Positions 5,358 through 50,470 of a DNA stretch of 64,000 nucleotides are shown in pieces (the stretch's first letter is position 1; every line of letters starts with the position of its first letter). Below the pieces are notes generated by a model that saw only the letters and a program-made list of their open reading frames with translations, had not been told where the DNA came from and searched no databases. A program made the translations under genes and the position numbers. Origin of the DNA: Patescibacteria group bacterium (lineage in GTDB: Bacteria; Patescibacteriota; Minisyncoccia; Phycocordibacterales; JAACPR01); assembly GCA_022711495.1 (NCBI GenBank), contig JAKLEX010000001.1, positions 151,058 through 215,057 of the forward strand. Direction: 5' to 3'.

Positions 5358-5457
5358 CGCGGGAAGCTTCTGAAATTCCCCCGCAGGGGTATTTTTGTCA
5401 CAGGTCTTTAGACCTTTACAAAAATATCCCCGAGGATTGGATTGAAGAAGCTTCCCG
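5358..5457 (+). repeat. Hairpin repeat element, copy 1 (core 5370-5445), flanked by 12 bp perfect inverted repeats gcgggaagcttc / gaagcttcccgc
   Basis: Conserved ends tgaaattcccccgcag ... ccgaggattggattgaag surround the inner hairpin ggggtatttttgtcacaggtctttagacctttacaaaaatatcccc. The other copies are at 27139-27243 (reverse), 33769-33879 and 46994-47100. Confidence 0.7.
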
Positions 5458-5494
5458 CAAAGCAATTCTTATAAACAGCACTGCGCGAATGATC

Positions 5495-7983: not shown

Positions 7984-7995
7984 AACTTATTTCTG

Positions 7996-8068
7996 TGCAC
8001 CAACTAGGACTCGAACCTAGGACCACAGAGGTATAAGCTCTGCGCTCTACCAACTGAGCTATTGGTGC
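7996..8068 (-). tRNA. tRNA-Ile (anticodon UAU)
   Basis: Hand-folded cloverleaf with a 7 bp acceptor stem, D-arm AGCUCAGUUGGUAGAGC, anticodon stem CAGAG/CUCUG with loop CUUAUAC, T-arm GGUUCGAGUCC. The UAU anticodon is unusual. Confidence 0.7.
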
Positions 8069-26404: not shown

Positions 26405-27126
26405 ATCCCGCAGAAAAAGATATGCCTACCGAAAAGAAAATAGAAATAATTCCGACGGTCATGCCGGAAAATCATACGGATTTTGTTGAAAAAATAAATC
26501 GCATTTTTTCTTTTGTTAGCACGATTCAAATTGATGTGATGGACGGAAAATTTGTTCCGTCAATCAGTTGGCCATACAACTCTGATAATGATTCTGATTG
26601 GCAAAAATATGTAAATCAGGAGGAGGGCTTGCCCCATTGGGATAAAGTTGATTTTGAAATAGATTTAATGGTTGAAGATCAAATCGCTGAAGCCAAAAAA
26701 TGGATCAGCGCCGGTGTTTCGCGCGTAATTTGTCATGTTGAGGCGTTGAAAGAAGATGGCCGGGCCGAATTTTTGAAATTAAGAGAGGATTTTGATGTGG
26801 AACTTTATTTGGCTTTAGTGCCGGAAACTTCTTTGGAGAAATTGACGCCGTATTTGGATGATTTAGATGGCGTGCAGTTTATGGGAATAAATAAAATTGG
26901 TTTTCAGGGGCAAGATTTTGAGCCAAAAGTTTTAGATAAAATTCGCCAACTTCGAGCGCAGAAACCAAATTTGCCGATTAGCGTTGACGGCGGAGTGAGT
27001 TTTGAAACGGCTCTCCAATTGGTCGCCGCGGGGGCCACGAAATTGGCTTCCGGATCATTGATTTTTGAATCGGATAATCCTAAAAAGACGATTGATGAAT
27101 TAAAGAACTTAGTCAGAAGCAAATAA
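26401..27126 (+). CDS. rpe: Ribulose-phosphate 3-epimerase-like protein
   Basis: DVMDGKFVP, MVED and VDGGV motifs of the RPE barrel, with an acidic insertion. Confidence 0.65.
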   Translation: MNPAEKDMPTEKKIEIIPTVMPENHTDFVEKINRIFSFVSTIQIDVMDGKFVPSISWPYNSDNDSDWQKYVNQEEGLPHWDKVDFEIDLMVEDQIAEAKKWISAGVSRVICHVEALKEDGRAEFLKLREDFDVELYLALVPETSLEKLTPYLDDLDGVQFMGINKIGFQGQDFEPKVLDKIRQLRAQKPNLPISVDGGVSFETALQLVAAGATKLASGSLIFESDNPKKTIDELKNLVRSK

Positions 27127-27138
27127 AAACACTTCAAC

Positions 27139-27243
27139 GCAAATAAAAACACTTTTGTTCAATCCAGTCCTCGGCATCATTTTCGTCAAGTTGCACTTGA
27201 CTAAAATGAGTCTGCGGAGGATCTCAAAAATGTTTTTATTTGC
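27139..27243 (-). repeat. Hairpin repeat element, copy 4 (reverse orientation; core 27158-27227) with 13 bp flanking inverted repeats gcaaataaaaaca / tgtttttatttgc
   Basis: ttcaatccagtcctcgg and ctgcggaggatctcaa are the reverse complements of the conserved ends. The inner stem cattttagtcaagt / acttgacgaaaatg is unique. Confidence 0.7.
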
Positions 27244-33508: not shown

Positions 33509-33775
33509 ATGAAAAAAGACATTCATCCGAAAAATCATAGGGATGTAATCTTTGTTGACGATTCAAGCGGCGAGCGTTTTTTAATTCCATCAACAATCTC
33601 CTCGGAAAAGACTGACAAATGGGCCGACGGAAAAGAATATCCAGTCGTGCATGTGGAAATCTCCAGCGCTTCGCATCCTTTTTATACTGGCCGAGAAAAT
33701 ATCGTTGATACCGCCGGTCGTGTTGAGAAATTCCGCGCTCGCGCTTCTAAGTCTACGAAGTCAAAGAAAAGTTAG
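33509..33775 (+). CDS. rpmE: Ribosomal protein bL31
   Basis: MKKDIHPK... L31 family pattern. Confidence 0.85.
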
Positions 33776-33879
33776 AAATGTTTTTTGAGATCCTCCGCAG
33801 GGGGTATTTTTGTCACAGGTCTTTAGACCTTTACAAAAATATCCCCGAGGACTGGATCGAATAAAAGCATTTCTAACTT
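33769..33879 (+). repeat. Hairpin repeat element, copy 2 (core 33784-33863) flanked by 12 bp perfect inverted repeats aagttagaaatg / catttctaactt; overlaps the rpmE stop codon
   Basis: ttgagatcctccgcag ... ccgaggactggatcgaa ends. The inner hairpin is nearly identical to copy 1. Confidence 0.7.
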
Positions 33880-33900
33880 TTCTTTGTCTTGTATAATTAG

Positions 33901-38304: not shown

Positions 38305-39287
38305 TTCCATTATCCAGAAAAACCCGAAGACGCGTCTTTCTCATTCTTTTGCTGGTTTTTATCTTGCTGGCGCCGGTAATTTTGGCCCGATCTTTGGGAT
38401 ATCGGCTTGAACAGCTGGAAGACATTTTTACTTTGGTAAAAATGGGCGGAATTTATCTTCATTCTGATGTTGTCGGAACGCAGATATATTTAGATGGCAA
38501 ATATGTTGAAAAAAGTGGTCTGTTGTTGAGAAATACTCTGATTCAGGATTTGAAGCCAGAGAGGGAATATAAAGTTACTGTCGTTAAAGACGGGATGCAT
38601 TCTTGGGAGAAAACTCTGGCTGTTTATCCGGGCGTTGTAACGGAAGCCCGAGTTTTGATGTTGCCGACAGAAATCGCTAGCGCCGAAATTTATCCTTTTA
38701 CCGATAAAAACGGAATGGGCACGACAACGCCGCAGACTTTTGTCTCAATTCAAAACGGTATTCCAACAAATCCGGAATATCTAAATTTGCAGAAACTTTT
38801 TAAAGAAGCTACGACGACGCCCGAACAAAAGACAATCGCATCCGCCAAAAACGCGGTTTCTACGACAACCAATATAAAATCTATTCCGAAATATTTCTCA
38901 GAACTTGGAGTTTCCGACCCTGACGCTTTGGAGAATTTGATAATTAGGGGCGATTCGGTTCTTTGGCTATCGGATGGGAAGGTTCTGGTTCACTGGGTTT
39001 CCGAAGACAGTGTCGCGCCTTATTATTACTGTCTTGATTTCACGAAGTGCCGTGAAGTCATAACGGTTTCTCTCGATGAACCAATAATTTCCTTTGATTT
39101 TTTGCCTGGACGAGATGATGTTTTAGTTGCCCTGACTTCTGGAGGATTATTTGCCGTGGAAATTGACGACCGTTCCGAAAGAAATATTCAGCCCGTATAT
39201 CTGGGTGAAAATCTAGAGTTTAGAATTGATTCAAAAGATCAAATCGTTATATTAGACTCAGACATTTTTTCCGTTCTTCGTTTCTAA
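38301..39287 (+). CDS. Hypothetical membrane-anchored protein with a PEGA-like beta-sandwich region
   Basis: N-terminal TM. YLDGKYV...YKVTVVKDGMHSWEK resembles a PEGA domain. Confidence 0.45.
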   Translation: MIPLSRKTRRRVFLILLLVFILLAPVILARSLGYRLEQLEDIFTLVKMGGIYLHSDVVGTQIYLDGKYVEKSGLLLRNTLIQDLKPEREYKVTVVKDGMHSWEKTLAVYPGVVTEARVLMLPTEIASAEIYPFTDKNGMGTTTPQTFVSIQNGIPTNPEYLNLQKLFKEATTTPEQKTIASAKNAVSTTTNIKSIPKYFSELGVSDPDALENLIIRGDSVLWLSDGKVLVHWVSEDSVAPYYYCLDFTKCREVITVSLDEPIISFDFLPGRDDVLVALTSGGLFAVEIDDRSERNIQPVYLGENLEFRIDSKDQIVILDSDIFSVLRF

Positions 39288-39351
39288 GTCTAGAAGTCGA
39301 AACCTTTTTAAAGTCTAGATTTAACTTAATTTTTACGCTAGAATTGCTCCC

Positions 39352-40056: not shown

Positions 40057-42429
40057 ATGCTCGTTTCCTACAACTGGCTAAAAGAATATTTCAGGAGATT
40101 GCCAAAACCGGAAAAATTGGCGGATCTTTTGAACAGGCGGTCATACGAAGTTGAGGGTATTGAAAAAATTGACGGTGATTCTGTTATGAATATTGATGTT
40201 CTGCCGAACCGCGCGCACGACTCCTTGTGTCACTATGGCGTGGCCAAAGAAATCTCAGCTATAACCGGCAGAAAATTTTTGGATAAACTGGCCGATTTGG
40301 AAAAACCGGCCGCGACCCAAAAGGGGACGATAAAAGTTCAAGTTTCGGATAATTTCTGCAAAAGATATATCGCTCGGCAGATTGATAATATTGAAATAAA
40401 AGATTCGCCGCAGGAAATCAAGGACAAGTTGAAATCTTTGGGTCAGAAATCCATAACCAATTTGGTGGATATCACCAATATCGTAATGTTTGAAATGGGG
40501 CAACCAATGCATGCCTTTGACGCCGATAAGCTCTCCGGCGAGACGATTTTTGTTCGGAGCGCTAAAGACGGCGAACAAATTACAACCTTGGACAAACAGG
40601 AAGTAATTTTAACCGCCGCGGATTTTGTTATTGCCGATGGCCGAGACGCCTTGGCTATGGCTGGAATTAAGGGCGGTAAAAAAGCCGAAATTGATGCCAG
40701 CACCAAAAATATTGTGCTTGAGGCGGCCAATTTTGATCCAGTCAGCGTAAGGAAAACTTCAAGAAGAAGCGGTGTCGCGACCGAATCATCCAAGCGTTTT
40801 GAGAACGAGATTTCACCGGTTTTGGCCGAAAAGGCGGTTGAGTTGGCTACGGATTTAATACTTAAATATGCCTCATCGGACAAGACTATTGTCCACGATT
40901 CGGTTGATTTTTATCCACGCCCGGTCAGGAAATATTTAACTGGCGTTTCTTCGACCGAAGCCTCAAGACTACTTGGCGTAAAATTAAGTGACAGAAAAAT
41001 CCGCAAGGTTTTGCGAAGACTAGATTTTGAATATCAGATCGTTCGTCCCAGATTAGCCGTTGCGGAAGAAGCTCAAAAATACATCGGCAAGAAATATAAG
41101 TACGGCGCCAGCGTTAGATTTGACTCGCCAGAGAGTTTTGACTGCTCGTCTTTCGTGGCTTATGTTTTTGCTAACGCCGCCGGTTTGGCTTTGCCGAGGA
41201 TTTCCGCCGACCAGTTTGCTTTTGGTGAAGAAATCAAAAAAGAAGAATTGGAGCCTGGCGACTTGGTTTTTTGCAATACGGGAAAATTGGAAATAAAAAT
41301 CCACGAAAAAACCTCGGAGTTTTTGCCGGGTACGAAAATCATCGGCGGCGTTGATCACGTTGGAATTTATCTTGGAGAAGACAAGATTGTTGACGCTAGC
41401 CGATATAACGAAAGCGGAGTTGAAATTCATTCATTATCCGGTCATCCAACTTTTTCAAAAAACCCACGTTTTGCCCGTGTTATAAAAGATAAAACCCGCT
41501 TCGTCGTCTCTGTTCCAGAAAGACGCTTGGACATCGGTAACAGAAAGGGAATCGATTTGAGCAGTGGCATTGAACTTATTGAGGAAATTGGGCGGATTCT
41601 CGGTTATGAAAAAATCCGCGATCTTGAAATTCCATCTGACGATTTTCAACCAAGAATACCGAAAGTTTATTCCTATAATAATTTAATCAGAAAAACTTTG
41701 GTTGATTTGGGCTTTTCGGAAATAATCACTTATACCTTTGTTAATTCCGGCGAGATTTCTCCGGAGAAGCCGTTGGCGGACGACAAAGCTTTCCTCCGCG
41801 CCGATTTACGATCAGGCATGGCCGGTTCCTTAGAGAAAAATCTTAGAAATGTTGATTTGCTCGGTTTAGATCAAGTTAAACTTTTTGAAATTGGCAAGAT
41901 TTTCAAGAAAGACGGGGAAAAACTTGCTTTATCTATCGGTGTAATAAACAAAACCGGCTTCAAAAAACTTACCTCGGCGGAAAGTTTGCGATCGGCCGTG
42001 AAAGCCCTGGAACAAGCCTTTGGAACAAAAATCGGCGTGGAAATTTCTAATTCCGACACCGGAATTGAAATAGATTTAGATAAATTATATGACGCTCTGC
42101 CGGTGCCGAAAGAATTGTTTAAGTTGTCGGAAGTCGTGTCCGCGCGCTACCAGCCGATTTCTGCGTTCCCATTTGTTTTGAGAGACATTGCCGTTTGGCT
42201 ACCGGACGAAGTTGAGGCATCAAAATTACTGGAGGTCATAAAAAAACACTCTAGCGATTTGCTCGTTACCAGCAGATTGTTTGATGTCTACAAAAAATCT
42301 GGCAGAACTTCTTACGCTTACAGATTAGTTTTCCAATCCGGTCAAAAAACCCTGACTGATGCTGAAATAAATGAAATCATGAAAGCTATCACCGACGATT
42401 TAGCAACTAGGGGCTGGGAGGTGAGATAG
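40057..42429 (+). CDS. pheT: Phenylalanine--tRNA ligase beta subunit, lacking the N-terminal tRNA-binding domain and carrying an NlpC/P60-like insertion (about residues 328-490, nt 41038-41526) within the B5 domain
   Basis: B3/4 (PMHAFDADKL), B5 (LGVKLSDRKIRKVLRRLDFEYQ ... RRLDIG...IEEIGRILGYEKI) and a C-terminal FDX-ACB domain. The insert carries FDCSSFV, PGDLVFC and DHVGIYLG motifs. Confidence 0.85.
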   Translation: MLVSYNWLKEYFRRLPKPEKLADLLNRRSYEVEGIEKIDGDSVMNIDVLPNRAHDSLCHYGVAKEISAITGRKFLDKLADLEKPAATQKGTIKVQVSDNFCKRYIARQIDNIEIKDSPQEIKDKLKSLGQKSITNLVDITNIVMFEMGQPMHAFDADKLSGETIFVRSAKDGEQITTLDKQEVILTAADFVIADGRDALAMAGIKGGKKAEIDASTKNIVLEAANFDPVSVRKTSRRSGVATESSKRFENEISPVLAEKAVELATDLILKYASSDKTIVHDSVDFYPRPVRKYLTGVSSTEASRLLGVKLSDRKIRKVLRRLDFEYQIVRPRLAVAEEAQKYIGKKYKYGASVRFDSPESFDCSSFVAYVFANAAGLALPRISADQFAFGEEIKKEELEPGDLVFCNTGKLEIKIHEKTSEFLPGTKIIGGVDHVGIYLGEDKIVDASRYNESGVEIHSLSGHPTFSKNPRFARVIKDKTRFVVSVPERRLDIGNRKGIDLSSGIELIEEIGRILGYEKIRDLEIPSDDFQPRIPKVYSYNNLIRKTLVDLGFSEIITYTFVNSGEISPEKPLADDKAFLRADLRSGMAGSLEKNLRNVDLLGLDQVKLFEIGKIFKKDGEKLALSIGVINKTGFKKLTSAESLRSAVKALEQAFGTKIGVEISNSDTGIEIDLDKLYDALPVPKELFKLSEVVSARYQPISAFPFVLRDIAVWLPDEVEASKLLEVIKKHSSDLLVTSRLFDVYKKSGRTSYAYRLVFQSGQKTLTDAEINEIMKAITDDLATRGWEVR

Positions 42430-43164: not shown

Positions 43165-45297
43165 ATGACTAAAAAAGAACAGCCCCAAAAGTCCGAAAAA
43201 GCCCCAAAAAATGGGGCTAAAAATGGCCTAAAAAAGAAGGGAAATGGACATCTCTATAATGCCGATGAGATTGTCGTTTTAGAGGGCCTGGAACCGGTCA
43301 GGAAGCGTCCAGGAATGTATATTGGTACCACTGGACCAGAAGGTCTTCAGCACCTGGTAACGGAGATTTTTGACAACTCGCGCGATGAAGCCATGGGCGG
43401 GTTCGCCGATCATATTGAAGTCGCCCTGCTCCCGAATGGCTACGTTCGAGTAGCCGACAACGGTCGAGGAATTCCGGTTGACAAGCATAAACAAACTAAA
43501 GTTTCTGCCTTAGAAACTGTCATGACAACTTTGCACGCCGGCGGAAAATTCGGCGGAGAAGATAGCGGCTACAAAGTTTCCGGCGGATTGCACGGCGTTG
43601 GTGCGTCCGTGGTTAACGCTCTTTCCGAACACCTAATCGCCGAAGTTCACCGCGACGGGAAAAAATATTTTCAGGAATATCATATCGGCAAAAGGAAAGC
43701 GGCGGTGAAAGAAATCGGCAAGACAGATTACACCGGTACGGTCATTACTTTTAAACCAGATGCCTCTATTTTTGAGACGACGGAATTTGATTTCAAGAAA
43801 ATCATTGAGCACTTGCGTTTGCAAGCCTATTTGGTTAAGGGGCTGCGCATCACGGTTATTGATGCTAAAGAGCATAAGGATAAAATTAATTTAGACGAGG
43901 TTCTTTATGTAACCGAAACAGACGCTCCTGTTTTATCAAAGACTTTTTATTTTGAAGGAGGCCTGGCTTCGCTGGTAAGTTTTAAAAACAAATTCCTGAA
44001 ACCGGTTCACAGAAATATTTTTTACGTGGACAAAGCCGATGCCGACTCCAAAGTTGAAGTAGAAGTCGCTCTTCAATACGTTGATGACATTTCTCCTCGT
44101 TTAACGGCTTTCGCCAACAATATCTACAACAGCGAAGGTGGCACGCACTTGACCGGATTCAAAACCGCTTTGACAAGAAGCTTGAACAATTACGGCAAGA
44201 AAAATAATTTAATCAAAGAAGCTGATGGCGGATTTACCGGCGATGACGCTTTGGAAGGTATAACCGCGGTGGTTTCTGTGAAAATGGCCGATATTCAGTT
44301 TGAAGGTCAGACAAAGTCTAAGCTTGGTTCAACCGAAGCTCGTGGCGCAGTTGAGGCCGTTTTCAGCGACGCCTTTAACGCCTTTCTGGAAGAACATCCG
44401 GACGACGCGCGTTCAATCATCAATAAGGTTGTTTTGGCCTTAAGAGCCAGAAAAGCGGCCAAGGCGGCCAAAGATTCCGTTTTGAGAAAAGGCGCTCTTG
44501 AGGGCATGACTTTGCCGGGCAAGCTGGCTGATTGTCAGACGAAATCTGCCGAAGAATCAGAGTTGTTTATCGTTGAGGGAGATTCAGCCGGCGGTACGGC
44601 CAAGACCGGAAGAGATCGGCGAACTCAGGCGGTTCTACCTCTGCGTGGAAAGATTTTGAATGTTGAAAGAGCTCGTCTGGATCGCATGCTGACCTCGGAG
44701 CAGATAAAGAATCTGGTCGTGGCCATGGGTACGGCTATCGGAGACACTTTTGATTTGGCCAAATTACGCTATCACAAAATTATCATTGCCACCGATGCCG
44801 ACGTGGACGGTGCGCACATTAGAACGCTACTTTTAACTTTGTTTTATAGATATTTCAAACCGATAATAGATGGTGGTTATTTGTATATCGCTCAACCACC
44901 ACTTTATAAAATATCTCGCGGAAAAGAAATTCACTATGCCTTTAGTGACGAAGAAAAAAATAAACTGATTGGCAAAAACGCAGAAATTCTTGACGAAGAA
45001 ACTGACGCAAATTCCGCCCCAGCCGAGGAGCTCGGCGATGAAGCTGGCGATAAGAACGCCGCTGCCAAAAAACCTGAAACCAAATGGCGAATTCAGCGAT
45101 ACAAAGGTCTCGGGGAAATGAATTCCGAGGAGTTGGCCGAGACGACTATGTCCGTTAAAAATCGTGTTCTCAAAAAAGTTACCATTGAAGACGCCATTGA
45201 AGCCGATTCAATCTTTGACATGCTGATGGGCACGGACGTTCCGGCCAGAAAGTTTTATATTACAAACAACGCCAAGTACGCTGATCTGGATATTTAA
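43165..45297 (+). CDS. gyrB: DNA gyrase subunit B
   Basis: GHKL ATPase, Toprim (EGDSAGG) and a C-terminal tail, 710 aa. Confidence 0.95.
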   Translation: MTKKEQPQKSEKAPKNGAKNGLKKKGNGHLYNADEIVVLEGLEPVRKRPGMYIGTTGPEGLQHLVTEIFDNSRDEAMGGFADHIEVALLPNGYVRVADNGRGIPVDKHKQTKVSALETVMTTLHAGGKFGGEDSGYKVSGGLHGVGASVVNALSEHLIAEVHRDGKKYFQEYHIGKRKAAVKEIGKTDYTGTVITFKPDASIFETTEFDFKKIIEHLRLQAYLVKGLRITVIDAKEHKDKINLDEVLYVTETDAPVLSKTFYFEGGLASLVSFKNKFLKPVHRNIFYVDKADADSKVEVEVALQYVDDISPRLTAFANNIYNSEGGTHLTGFKTALTRSLNNYGKKNNLIKEADGGFTGDDALEGITAVVSVKMADIQFEGQTKSKLGSTEARGAVEAVFSDAFNAFLEEHPDDARSIINKVVLALRARKAAKAAKDSVLRKGALEGMTLPGKLADCQTKSAEESELFIVEGDSAGGTAKTGRDRRTQAVLPLRGKILNVERARLDRMLTSEQIKNLVVAMGTAIGDTFDLAKLRYHKIIIATDADVDGAHIRTLLLTLFYRYFKPIIDGGYLYIAQPPLYKISRGKEIHYAFSDEEKNKLIGKNAEILDEETDANSAPAEELGDEAGDKNAAAKKPETKWRIQRYKGLGEMNSEELAETTMSVKNRVLKKVTIEDAIEADSIFDMLMGTDVPARKFYITNNAKYADLDI

Positions 45298-45302
45298 TTA
45301 AT

Positions 45303-46628
45303 CTAGTTATTGACCTCCAAAGTTTCCGATTCGGTATTGTTGTTTTCTTTTTCTTCGTCAACATCGTCGTCGGAATCAACCTCTACGCGAATGTTGTAAC
45401 GGCCCTCGTCGGGATTTTCAAATTCAACGGTAATGATCACGGATTCACCGGGATCCAAGGAGTCTTGTCGGCTTGATTCATAATCATCGTCACCGCTGTC
45501 GTATGGCAAATTTTCTACTTGAAAGCGCCAACGGCCAGTATCTTCTCCGCCACGGTTTACAACGACGAATTGAATAGCCGCGTCATCATCCTCGTCAATT
45601 TCGTCATCCTCAATGAACCTTGAACCACTCATTCGACCGACTTGCAAGTCTTCAATCTGGAGGTCGGCATCATCATCCTCGTCATAATCATTATCAATAT
45701 AGTCGCCATCCTCGTCGCCCTCAATGTCTATCGTGGCGCGGTTATTTGATTCGGAACCTTCACTGATGTTATTGTCGGGATCAACGAAAATATCCGTTTC
45801 TCCTTCGGGAGTTCCGCTATCAAATCTAAGAGTGAATTTAATAGTATCTCCTGGTCGCAAATTTGGTTGAAGAGGGGAATCTTCAGTTCCTTCGCCAGGC
45901 GTAGAGTAATTAAAAATCCAGTTCCCGGTATTTTGTCCTCCATTGTTTCTGACGACAAATTGAACCGTTAAATCATCTACTGGGTCAGCATTTATAATAG
46001 CCAAATCAGCCGGCAGACTGGTATAAGTCGGTGCAGTTGATACTGTCGCTCCGCTTGTGGAAGTAGTTGTCACTGGTCCAGCAGTAACAGTTGCTCCAGC
46101 GATTGTTCCGACCGGGACCGGATTGTTTGAATCTTGAACGGTGACAGTCGTCTGGCCACTGGCTAAAACGGTGTCATTTGAAGACTCAATAAAAGAAACT
46201 TCCAATGGTAGATCTATGAAAGAGTTTTCTTTAGCGTAGCCAATTCCGAATTCGGCGCTGTTGGCGTCGGCCGGTAGTGGATAACGAGTATTACACAAAA
46301 CTATTTTTGAATCTGCCGTAGTAACGCTCAAATCATCAAGACATTTATAAGTCAAGTAAAATCCGCCCTCTTTTTCTGTTTTGTATTCCCAATTTAAAGC
46401 GAACTTATCTCCATCAATCAAGTTCGGATCGTTGACACTGACGACGACCTCATTTTTTTGAAATGGGGAAGAGATCAGATTGCCGACTGAAGCGAAACTA
46501 GAAAAAAGCGCCGGTATAAACTTCATAATGGCGAAAGCCAAAATGAATACCACCGCGATTATGCCGATAATAAACAAAATTTTCAAAATAATGCCCTTTG
46601 TCGTGCTCATAATAGTTTCCAACATCAT
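45303..46628 (-). CDS. Membrane-anchored acidic surface protein with two CARDB-like repeats
   Basis: N-terminal TM. Repeats QFVVRNNGGQNTGNW and QFVVVNRGGEDTGRW. Long Asp/Glu-rich segments. Confidence 0.5.
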   Translation of the reverse strand: MMLETIMSTTKGIILKILFIIGIIAVVFILAFAIMKFIPALFSSFASVGNLISSPFQKNEVVVSVNDPNLIDGDKFALNWEYKTEKEGGFYLTYKCLDDLSVTTADSKIVLCNTRYPLPADANSAEFGIGYAKENSFIDLPLEVSFIESSNDTVLASGQTTVTVQDSNNPVPVGTIAGATVTAGPVTTTSTSGATVSTAPTYTSLPADLAIINADPVDDLTVQFVVRNNGGQNTGNWIFNYSTPGEGTEDSPLQPNLRPGDTIKFTLRFDSGTPEGETDIFVDPDNNISEGSESNNRATIDIEGDEDGDYIDNDYDEDDDADLQIEDLQVGRMSGSRFIEDDEIDEDDDAAIQFVVVNRGGEDTGRWRFQVENLPYDSGDDDYESSRQDSLDPGESVIITVEFENPDEGRYNIRVEVDSDDDVDEEKENNNTESETLEVNN

Positions 46629-46907: not shown

Positions 46908-46993
46908 CAGAACTCTAAAGTCTCCTCTCAAAACACGCGTCAGCCGCTCCAGCGAGCGGCTGCGCTGTTCTCGGTCGGTTCTGCCCGACCCGA

Positions 46994-47100
46994 AAAACTC
47001 TAAAGTATTTTGAAATCCTCCGCAGGCGCTCGTTGTCATAGATCTTTAGATCTTGACATAAGAGTGCCGAGGACTGGATTGAAAAATACTTTAGAGTTTT
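46994..47100 (+). repeat. Hairpin repeat element, copy 3 (core 47011-47084) flanked by 17 bp perfect inverted repeats aaaactctaaagtattt / aaatactttagagtttt
   Basis: tgaaatcctccgcagg ... ccgaggactggattgaa ends. The inner stem gtcatagatcttt agatcttgacat is unique. The motif actctaaagt also occurs at 46912. Confidence 0.7.
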
Positions 47101-49567: not shown

Positions 49568-50470
49568 TTATAAATTAGCAACCAATTTCTCCGCCAGCCT
49601 TATATTTTGAGGTTTAATCCAAACAATTCTCTTGTCTCTCTTGAACCAAGTCATCTGTCGTTTGGCGTATTGGCAGATTTTCTTTGTCAGCTTCTCAAAC
49701 ATCTCTTTTTTAGAAAGTTTGTTTTGTAGAAATAAGGAAACATAGCGATATTCTAGGCCAAAATCATAAAGTCTTTTCCAAGAGACACTTTTCTTGTGCA
49801 AATTTTGAACTTCTGGGATCAATCCTGCTCGAATTCTTCTCAAAAGCCGACTTCTTATTCGTTTTTCTAGTTTTTCTTTTGGCCAAGAAAGTCCGATTTG
49901 TAAGCACTCGTATTTTGGCACGGATTTTATTGGCGGGACTTTCCCTAATGCTGAGGCGATTTCAATGGCCCGAATTAATCTCGCTGGATTTTTTGTATCA
50001 ATTTCTTTGAATCTATCGGCGTCTAGTTTTTTTAGAATGTTTTGTAACCAAACCAGATCAAGTTTCTGCAATTTTTTCCGCAGGATTTTATTTTCTGGCA
50101 CTTTCGGCAAAACTAATCCATCAACAATTGATGAAATATAAAATCCTGTTCCGCCACAGATTATCGGCAATTTTTTGCGCGATAAAATTTCCTTAATCTT
50201 TTTCTCGGCTATTTTTTGATAATCTGCCACGGAAAAAACTTTTTTCGGCGAGACGATATCAAGCAGATGATGGGGAACTCCGCGCATCTCCTTTTTTGTG
50301 ATTTTTCCGGAGCCAATATCCAGTCCCTTATAGACTTGCCTCGAATCGGCAGAAATTATTTCACCGCTGGATTTACGCGCCAATTTCACCGCCAAATCGC
50401 TTTTGCCGGAAGAAGTCGGGCCCAAAATGACTAAAATTTTAGGTTTCATGATTGATCGTGCCGCTTTCAA
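49568..50470 (-). CDS. miaA: tRNA dimethylallyltransferase
   Basis: P-loop GPTSSGKS and the MiaA family pattern. Confidence 0.85.
   Translation of the reverse strand: MKAARSIMKPKILVILGPTSSGKSDLAVKLARKSSGEIISADSRQVYKGLDIGSGKITKKEMRGVPHHLLDIVSPKKVFSVADYQKIAEKKIKEILSRKKLPIICGGTGFYISSIVDGLVLPKVPENKILRKKLQKLDLVWLQNILKKLDADRFKEIDTKNPARLIRAIEIASALGKVPPIKSVPKYECLQIGLSWPKEKLEKRIRSRLLRRIRAGLIPEVQNLHKKSVSWKRLYDFGLEYRYVSLFLQNKLSKKEMFEKLTKKICQYAKRQMTWFKRDKRIVWIKPQNIRLAEKLVANL

Follow-up and report, generated by a model that had tools for sequence, protein, structure and literature searches.

The intergenic region between rpmE and prfA carries a long hairpin element that recurs at three other intergenic places in the 64-kb stretch of DNA analyzed here (the window), and the question raised by this locus is what kind of element it is. 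A previous sequence-only reading took the four copies for a structured RNA family, and proposed as an alternative a selfish palindrome that inserts into the loops of pre-existing hairpins. We found that the element, termed E (~80 nt), belongs to a real and apparently undescribed palindromic repeat family, and that it is probably a non-coding, non-autonomous mobile palindrome, similar to REPINs and MITEs, that is lodged in the tips of terminators. The four copies in the window are as follows:

5359..5458, plus strand: copy A, between smpB and ssrA (both minus strand), element antisense; outer arms 5359-5370 / 5447-5458 (gcgggaagcttc / gaagcttcccgc), core 5371-5446; 87.7 bits with the covariance model
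27139..27243, minus strand: copy C, between rpe and tkt (both plus strand), element antisense; outer arms 27231-27243 / 27139-27151 (stem gcaaataaaaaca), core with its T/A ends 27152-27230; 89.9 bits
33762..33886, plus strand: copy B, between rpmE and prfA, sense; stem aagttagaaatg, 19-bp outer arms 33762-33780 / 33868-33886 (caaagaaaagttagaaatg / catttctaacttttctttg), element 33781-33867; 100.9 bits
46994..47100, plus strand: copy D, between rpmG and tRNA-Trp, sense; stem aaaactctaaagtattt, 17-bp outer arms 46994-47010 / 47084-47100, core 47011-47083; 82.3 bits

Copies in the window

A covariance model was built from six copies and searched over the window with filters off. All four of the elements claimed by the sequence-only reading were recovered, with scores of 82-101 bits and E-values of 1e-19 to 1e-24. 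Apart from matches to the opposite strand of these loci (25-36 bits for A, B, and C and 14.7 bits for D), the window contained no match above 15 bits. The lower score on the reverse strand was due to sequence alone; the folds were equally stable on both strands. Each copy was predicted to form one long hairpin of ~100-125 nt, with z-scores of -6.7 to -11.6 relative to shuffles on both strands, and the right end motif (CCGAGGAYTGGATYGAA) had exactly four exact matches in the 64-kb window. A further 16 kb of the same genome contained no more copies, giving four E copies in ~80 kb. Long inverted repeats at 39209-39322, 50072-50243, and 2837-2899 were considered as further copies and were found to be unrelated to the E family.

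The gene neighbors named previously (smpB|ssrA, rpe|tkt, rpmE|prfA, and rpmG|tRNA-Trp) were confirmed, as was the observation that two copies (B and D) are sense and two (A and C) antisense relative to local transcription. GC skew was positive along the whole window, consistent with a single replichore, in which the elements are oriented +, -, +, + in order of position. Each copy is indeed enclosed by its own complementary stem, but three of the four stems had been assigned to the wrong coordinates in what proved to be a permuted list, and the stem length given as 12-17 bp is too short for the copy at 33769, where 33762-33780 pairs with 33868-33886 in a stem of 19 bp. The left arm of this copy (33762-33780) includes the last four codons of rpmE and its stop codon, TAG, at 33773-33775. 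Similarly, the reported pair of identical inner hairpins exists, as do the compensatory changes, but the pair consists of copies A (5359) and B (33762) rather than the first two loci along the window. The inner hairpins of the other copies had been described as different but can still be aligned; they retain GTCA...TGAC and differ by substitutions, many of which are compensatory. Copies A and B, which lie 28 kb apart and have unrelated flanks, were 94% identical over 71 nt and are a recent intragenomic copy pair. All five assemblies of the species were 100% identical to the window, so no within-species polymorphism was seen. Short-read assemblies are broken by such palindromes; a Logan contig of the same strain stops inside copy B (L132:10274-10322).

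Fold, covariation, and strand

Together with three copies from relatives (L036, L135, and L150; described below), the window copies make up a set of seven, 49-85 nt in length, from six loci in three genomes, all of which matched one covariance model at 47-101 bits. Pairing was retained in 93.7% of cells over the seven copies, five pairs (10 cells) were changed on both sides, and the pairing/covariation score was reached by 0 of 500 shuffles. A switch from G-C to A-T occurs within the helix of the conserved motifs (GAGATCC...GGATCGAA vs. GAAATCC...GGATTGAA), and therefore the two end motifs pair with each other. In the proposed fold, YTTTTGAGATCCTCCGCAG and CCGAGGACTGGATYGAAYAAAAG would form one imperfect helix with fixed asymmetries, namely a CT bulge and an internal loop of GA against GAAY, and the inner hairpin would be a spacer only. 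Across three species the end motifs and the asymmetric bulges were nearly invariant while the spacer drifts, from which we infer that the element is recognized by a protein in its folded form. A putative trans-acting protein responsible for copying or maintaining the element would recognize the folded, bulged helix as single-stranded DNA (or, less likely, as RNA).

The strong predicted folds, the real covariation, the conserved internal loops and bulges, and a relative of E that forms a three-way junction (E2; see below) all speak for a structured non-coding RNA, either a riboregulator or a small ribozyme, whose fold would be held by the co-varying helices and whose functional motifs would be the conserved loops. 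This was the reading preferred from the sequence alone, and on the present evidence it is highly improbable. Two of the four window copies (A and C), as well as the rpe copy of a related species, are antisense to transcription; mismatches on the forward strand were balanced between the G·U type (5) and the A·C type (4), so that neither strand is favored as RNA; the inner hairpin has been lost from one copy in another species; and the element is missing from orthologous sites in close relatives. The check for known families that had been recommended gave no Rfam match at the gathering threshold, and in E-value mode only hairpin noise of the miRNA-precursor type was returned (13-28 bits, compared to thresholds of 45-249 bits). 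Covariation screens can misidentify palindromes such as E as structured RNAs.

Other identities were considered on the basis of sequence reading and general knowledge and were rejected. A K-turn motif does not fit, as most copies have a 2x4 loop whose long strand does not contain the GA that this motif requires. A density of ~1 per 20 kb is far too low for a DNA-uptake signal, and GATCCTCC, viewed as an anti-Shine-Dalgarno-like sequence, occurs at inconsistent positions relative to start codons.

Outer stems and orthologous sites in related species

The relatives compared were R1 (GCA_964402215.1; L133), R2 (JGI 3300076029; L135 and L149), and R3 (GCA_964461185.1; L036 and L150). A tree inferred from prfA, rpsB, and tsf had the topology (window,(R1,(R2,R3))), and the coding sequences of R1-R3 were 72-76% identical to those of the window at the nucleotide level. 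In ~36 kb of R2 there were one E and one E2, and in ~24 kb of R3 one E (between ftsZ and trxB, sense) and one shortened copy, or mini-E. No copy was present in the 21 kb of R1 that was sampled, nor in ~20 kb from each of two more distant relatives. A loose-pattern search of genome contigs yielded one true copy (L036) among the 120 loci listed, the remainder being chance matches in high-GC genomes; a metagenome (JGI) scan yielded nine matches, all of them by chance and in coding sequence; and two scans of viral contigs gave chance matches only, in which the motifs were never paired. A 353-aa lineage-specific protein encoded beside copy D was also tried as a guide to relatives and pointed to a more distant genome that is not syntenic and had no copies. 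In the sequences sampled, the family was seen only in the window species, R2, and R3, and it appears confined to a genus-level clade of Paceibacterota, within the candidate phyla radiation (CPR). Exact protein matches assign the window to a metagenome-assembled genome of Candidatus Paceibacterota. The R3 metagenome-assembled genome was deposited as 'Candidatus Saccharibacteria', a label that looks wrong: its GyrB is 84% identical to that of the window, the gene order matches, and its closest named relatives are Paceibacterota.

The following additional features are needed for comparison of the sites:

27119..27131, plus strand (window): extra direct copy of the copy C terminator arm (GCAAATAAAAACA); the rpe stop codon lies within it (27124-27126)
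46922..46995, minus strand (window): degenerate E2 copy, adjoining copy D, in which one of the two hairpins is GC-rich (CAGCCGCTC/GAGCGGCTG)
L135:4974-5051 (R2): E at the filled rpe|tkt site orthologous to that of copy C
L149:12140-12262 (R2): intact E2, a three-way junction inside a 14-bp terminator stem

Orthologous sites vary between related species, being empty or occupied by E, mini-E, or E2. At rpe|tkt, R1 possesses a plain hairpin that overlaps the rpe stop codon and has no element (AGAGTAAAATAAAA-GTTG-TTTTTATTTTACTCT), R2 has the same arms with ACAAC and E inserted, and the window has E at the same place and in the same orientation and subfamily as R2. The GTTG loop of R1 appears in R2 as a paired CAAC/GTTG. 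The outer stems had previously been regarded as helices of the RNA family; the R1 site shows an ordinary terminator hairpin with the same arms and without the core, which is what the sequence-only reading itself had named as evidence against that idea. Between the convergent genes gyrB and CARDB, R3 has AAAAAACGCC-(TTTTTGAGATCCTCCGCAG-gtcgtagat-CGAGGACTGGATCAAATAAAAG)-GGCGTTTTTT, a mini-E with a 9-nt center and without the inner hairpin, and R2 has AAAAAACACTCTTA-(E2)-TAAGAGTGTTTTTT; the host stems in these relatives are of the A6...T6 type. In the window itself, the convergent stop codons of gyrB and CARDB are 5 nt apart (45297-45303) with no terminator between them, and the spacer in R2 and R3 is 86-145 nt and contains the element-bearing bidirectional terminator. 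Near this site, R3 alone has a GC-rich segment between CARDB and rpmG (L150:13650-14540) with a 235-aa ORF that has no Pfam match and looks foreign. At rpmE|prfA, ordinary short terminators without E were present in L133, L135/L149, L150, L152, and L153. At rpmG|tRNA-Trp, plain GC-rich terminators without E were seen in L149 (R2) and L150 (R3), and L152 and L153 were also free of E.

A stem that follows a stop codon, carries a T-run, and has an E-free orthologue was found at rpe|tkt, and gyrB|CARDB was counted with it on account of its A6...T6 stems. Judging from these sequence comparisons, the locus-specific outer stems are largely the arms of host terminator hairpins. The copies are situated at the tips of Rho-independent-type hairpins that follow genes. 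Copies C and D end in TTTT after the stem, and the stem of copy A is followed by a T-run on neither strand. A simple terminator scan was blind to these long hairpins since it allowed loops of ≤8 nt. The cross-species sites in essence bear out the second suggestion of the sequence-only reading, a selfish palindrome seated in loops of hairpins that were already there, except that at least one stem, that of copy B, looks remodeled and extended. At this locus the terminator arm of R1 itself begins with the 10-mer AGTTAGAAAT. The right arm of copy B repeats the left flank perfectly in inverted form and only loosely resembles the right arm and T-tract of the relatives. The copy B stem therefore looks like an ancestral terminator that was remodeled and extended, not like a simple loop insertion. 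The empty site of R1 can alternatively be read as a loss, in which slippage between AAAA runs at the hairpin foot deleted the element. For rpe|tkt, the single clean pair of empty and filled sites, the tree makes a gain as parsimonious as a loss.

The rpe|tkt copies of the window and R2 were identical at 72 of 79 positions (91%), compared to a nucleotide identity of only 72-76% for prfA, rpsB, and tsf. This value and the 94% identity of copies A and B indicate both copying and constraint, and the 91% conservation of the orthologous copy is equally compatible with a host function and with recent insertion. The element might then be a module that serves the host, with a bulged helix that binds a host protein or helps to stabilize transcript 3′ ends or to terminate transcription, maintained by purifying selection, inherited mostly vertically, and perhaps derived from a co-opted mobile element, as proposed for some REP/REPIN classes. 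In addition to the conservation at rpe|tkt, this explanation is favored by end motifs that are almost unchanged in three species, by the location of the copies, always at gene ends and inside A-tract/T-tract hairpins, and by bulges that are conserved though the remainder behaves as a palindrome. We nevertheless consider it unlikely, because sister species manage the same sites with plain terminators and no element, one site may hold different family members, orientation is mixed, copy A is without a T-run on either strand, and the A/B subfamily was seen in the window genome only.

The sample as a whole comprises seven E and two E2 copies. E2 retains the CGCAG...CGAGAA of E, has GAGAC/GTCTC in place of GATCC/GGATC, and carries a GC-rich hairpin at the position of E's CT bulge, producing the three-way junction. 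In the degenerate window copy this hairpin shows compensatory changes (GACCGCTC/GAGCGGTC vs. AGCCGCTC/GAGCGGCT). For the E2 copy of the window, the match spanned 31 nt at 87% identity, and alignment by hand extended the match to 37/46 positions with compensatory changes in the stem. It is flanked by a direct repeat, aactctaaagt, at 46911-46921 and 46996-47006. One terminator arm is thus directly duplicated at D (46911-46921 vs. 46996-47006), as it is at C, where 7 nt lie between the extra arm (27119-27131) and the arm adjoining the element (27139-27151). It is possible that these direct copies arose by an out-of-register template switch or that they represent an old target duplication.

Relation to known repeats and mode of spread

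REPINs are doublets of REP sequences that form hairpins and are mobilized by RAYT Y1 transposases; their inverted arms are conserved, the spacer forms a hairpin without being conserved, and A/T runs point to co-option as terminators (PMC3337134). E resembles them in being ~80-110 nt, intergenic, and dispersed, with two conserved inverted arms that pair and a spacer that is variable in length and not conserved in sequence, yet always forms a hairpin. The A/T runs at the ends of E point to use as a terminator, and copies are kept across related species. On direct reading, however, the E arms (TTGAGATCCTCCGCAG, CCGAGGACTGGATCGAA) are not self-complementary beyond GATC and have no GTAG-type REP signature. 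E is also nested inside a further, locus-specific host hairpin, it occurs at ~1 per 20 kb rather than at hundreds per genome, and no RAYT gene was found among the proteins scanned in ~80 kb of the window genome.

E shares with MITEs and terminator-like repeats such as Correia, ERIC, RUP, and SPRITE (PMC3184786) a small, non-coding, dispersed, multi-copy character, imperfect terminal inverted repeats (the paired left and right motifs), and the formation of long hairpins at gene ends, SPRITE being itself terminator-like. Unlike in MITEs, the flanks of E are inverted repeats, and a direct target-site duplication is absent from all seven copies, the case of copy A being ambiguous because its GAAGCTTC is palindromic; classical MITE transposition is therefore not shown. 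Thus E is REPIN/MITE-like in how it works, yet it departs from both classes when they are defined strictly, as its arms are not palindromic REPs and it has no direct duplications. We know of no insertion sequence with ends that match E. Neither a cognate insertion sequence nor a transposase was found in ~80 kb of the window genome or in ~80 kb of its relatives. Pfam detected no transposase or recombinase among the proteins scanned in ~80 kb of the window genome; 29 proteins of the window comprised housekeeping and pilus genes only, with no match to Y1_Tnp.

Group IIC introns insert next to terminators. IS1397/ISKpn1 and the IS110-family elements in REP loops (PMC1525189) are likewise inserted in or beside an intergenic stem-loop, not at a sequence motif. 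Such hairpin-targeting insertion sequences and introns differ in that they encode their own enzyme, whereas E is non-coding and is itself a hairpin. The attC sites of integrons are recognized as folded single strands; their inverted ends are conserved but imperfect, with extrahelical bases, and enclose a variable hairpin. E is similar to attC in its bulged inverted ends and in a central hairpin that varies in sequence and length, but the RYYYAAC / GTTRRRY core sites are absent from its ends, it forms no cassette array, no integrase was found in ~80 kb, and its copies are solitary in terminators between housekeeping genes. In contrast to the PATEs derived from IS200/IS605, E has no conserved tetra- or pentanucleotide target 5′ of its left end; the left flanks of the seven copies differ (GAAATG, AAAACA, AGGTGG, AACAAC, AACGCC, AGTATT, and AGCTTC).

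If E is a mobile palindrome of the REPIN/MITE-like kind, copies would survive in terminators because the tip of such a hairpin tolerates an added hairpin without harm to the gene or to termination. Once a long palindrome was in place, intrastrand template switching ('quasipalindrome correction') would perfect and extend the flanking arms, and this would account for the 19-bp stem of copy B that reaches into rpmE, the CAAC/GTTG of R2, and the extra arms at C and D. Template switching at quasipalindromes is an established mechanism (PMC7202029). Taken further, the same process could in principle have spread the element without any dedicated enzyme, by ectopic template switching or gene conversion between terminator hairpins at stalled forks, with the motifs being merely the inherited sequence of a young family. 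Flanks that are inverted rather than direct duplications, the extra direct arms at C and D, the perfect inverted copy of a coding flank in the right arm of copy B, and the absence of any transposase match in ~80 kb are all in keeping with this; even so, we regard enzyme-free spread as very unlikely. Youth alone explains neither the near-identical end motifs beside strongly diverged inner hairpins nor the presence of the same motifs in species that are ~25% diverged, and palindrome correction should erase the conserved asymmetric bulges.

A more specific and quite speculative possibility, which we would not expect to be correct, is that E and E2 represent a new class of 'hairpin-into-hairpin' mobile DNA. 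Here the folded strand would be recognized by its bulged helix and joined into an extruded terminator hairpin at its nicked tip, fill-in of the loop would generate inverted duplications (CAAC-E-GTTG in R2), and the element would move only between terminators. If true, this would amount to structure-guided, sequence-independent targeting in minimal CPR genomes. Should a cognate enzyme exist, the conserved bulged ends, dispensable spacer, three-way-junction relative, and inverted flank duplications would make the family a tractable case of structure-guided targeting. Full-text literature searches, some of them specific to Parcubacteria or the CPR, returned no description of E. The genomes of the CPR are tiny and tightly packed; by persisting at terminator tips alone, the repeat marks the places where they tolerate extra DNA. 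As a REPIN/MITE-like repeat, E would also add a REPIN-like system outside the Proteobacteria.

Two features of the window unrelated to E were also observed. ARAGORN called a tRNA-Ile with a TAT (UAU) anticodon, which is uncommon in bacteria, at 7995-8068. The phenylalanyl-tRNA synthetase beta subunit encoded at 40057-42429 has an NlpC/P60 Pfam match between its B3_4/B5 and core domains, and the same match recurs in the beta subunit of every relative whose full gene was retrieved (L130, L131, L135, and L149-L153).
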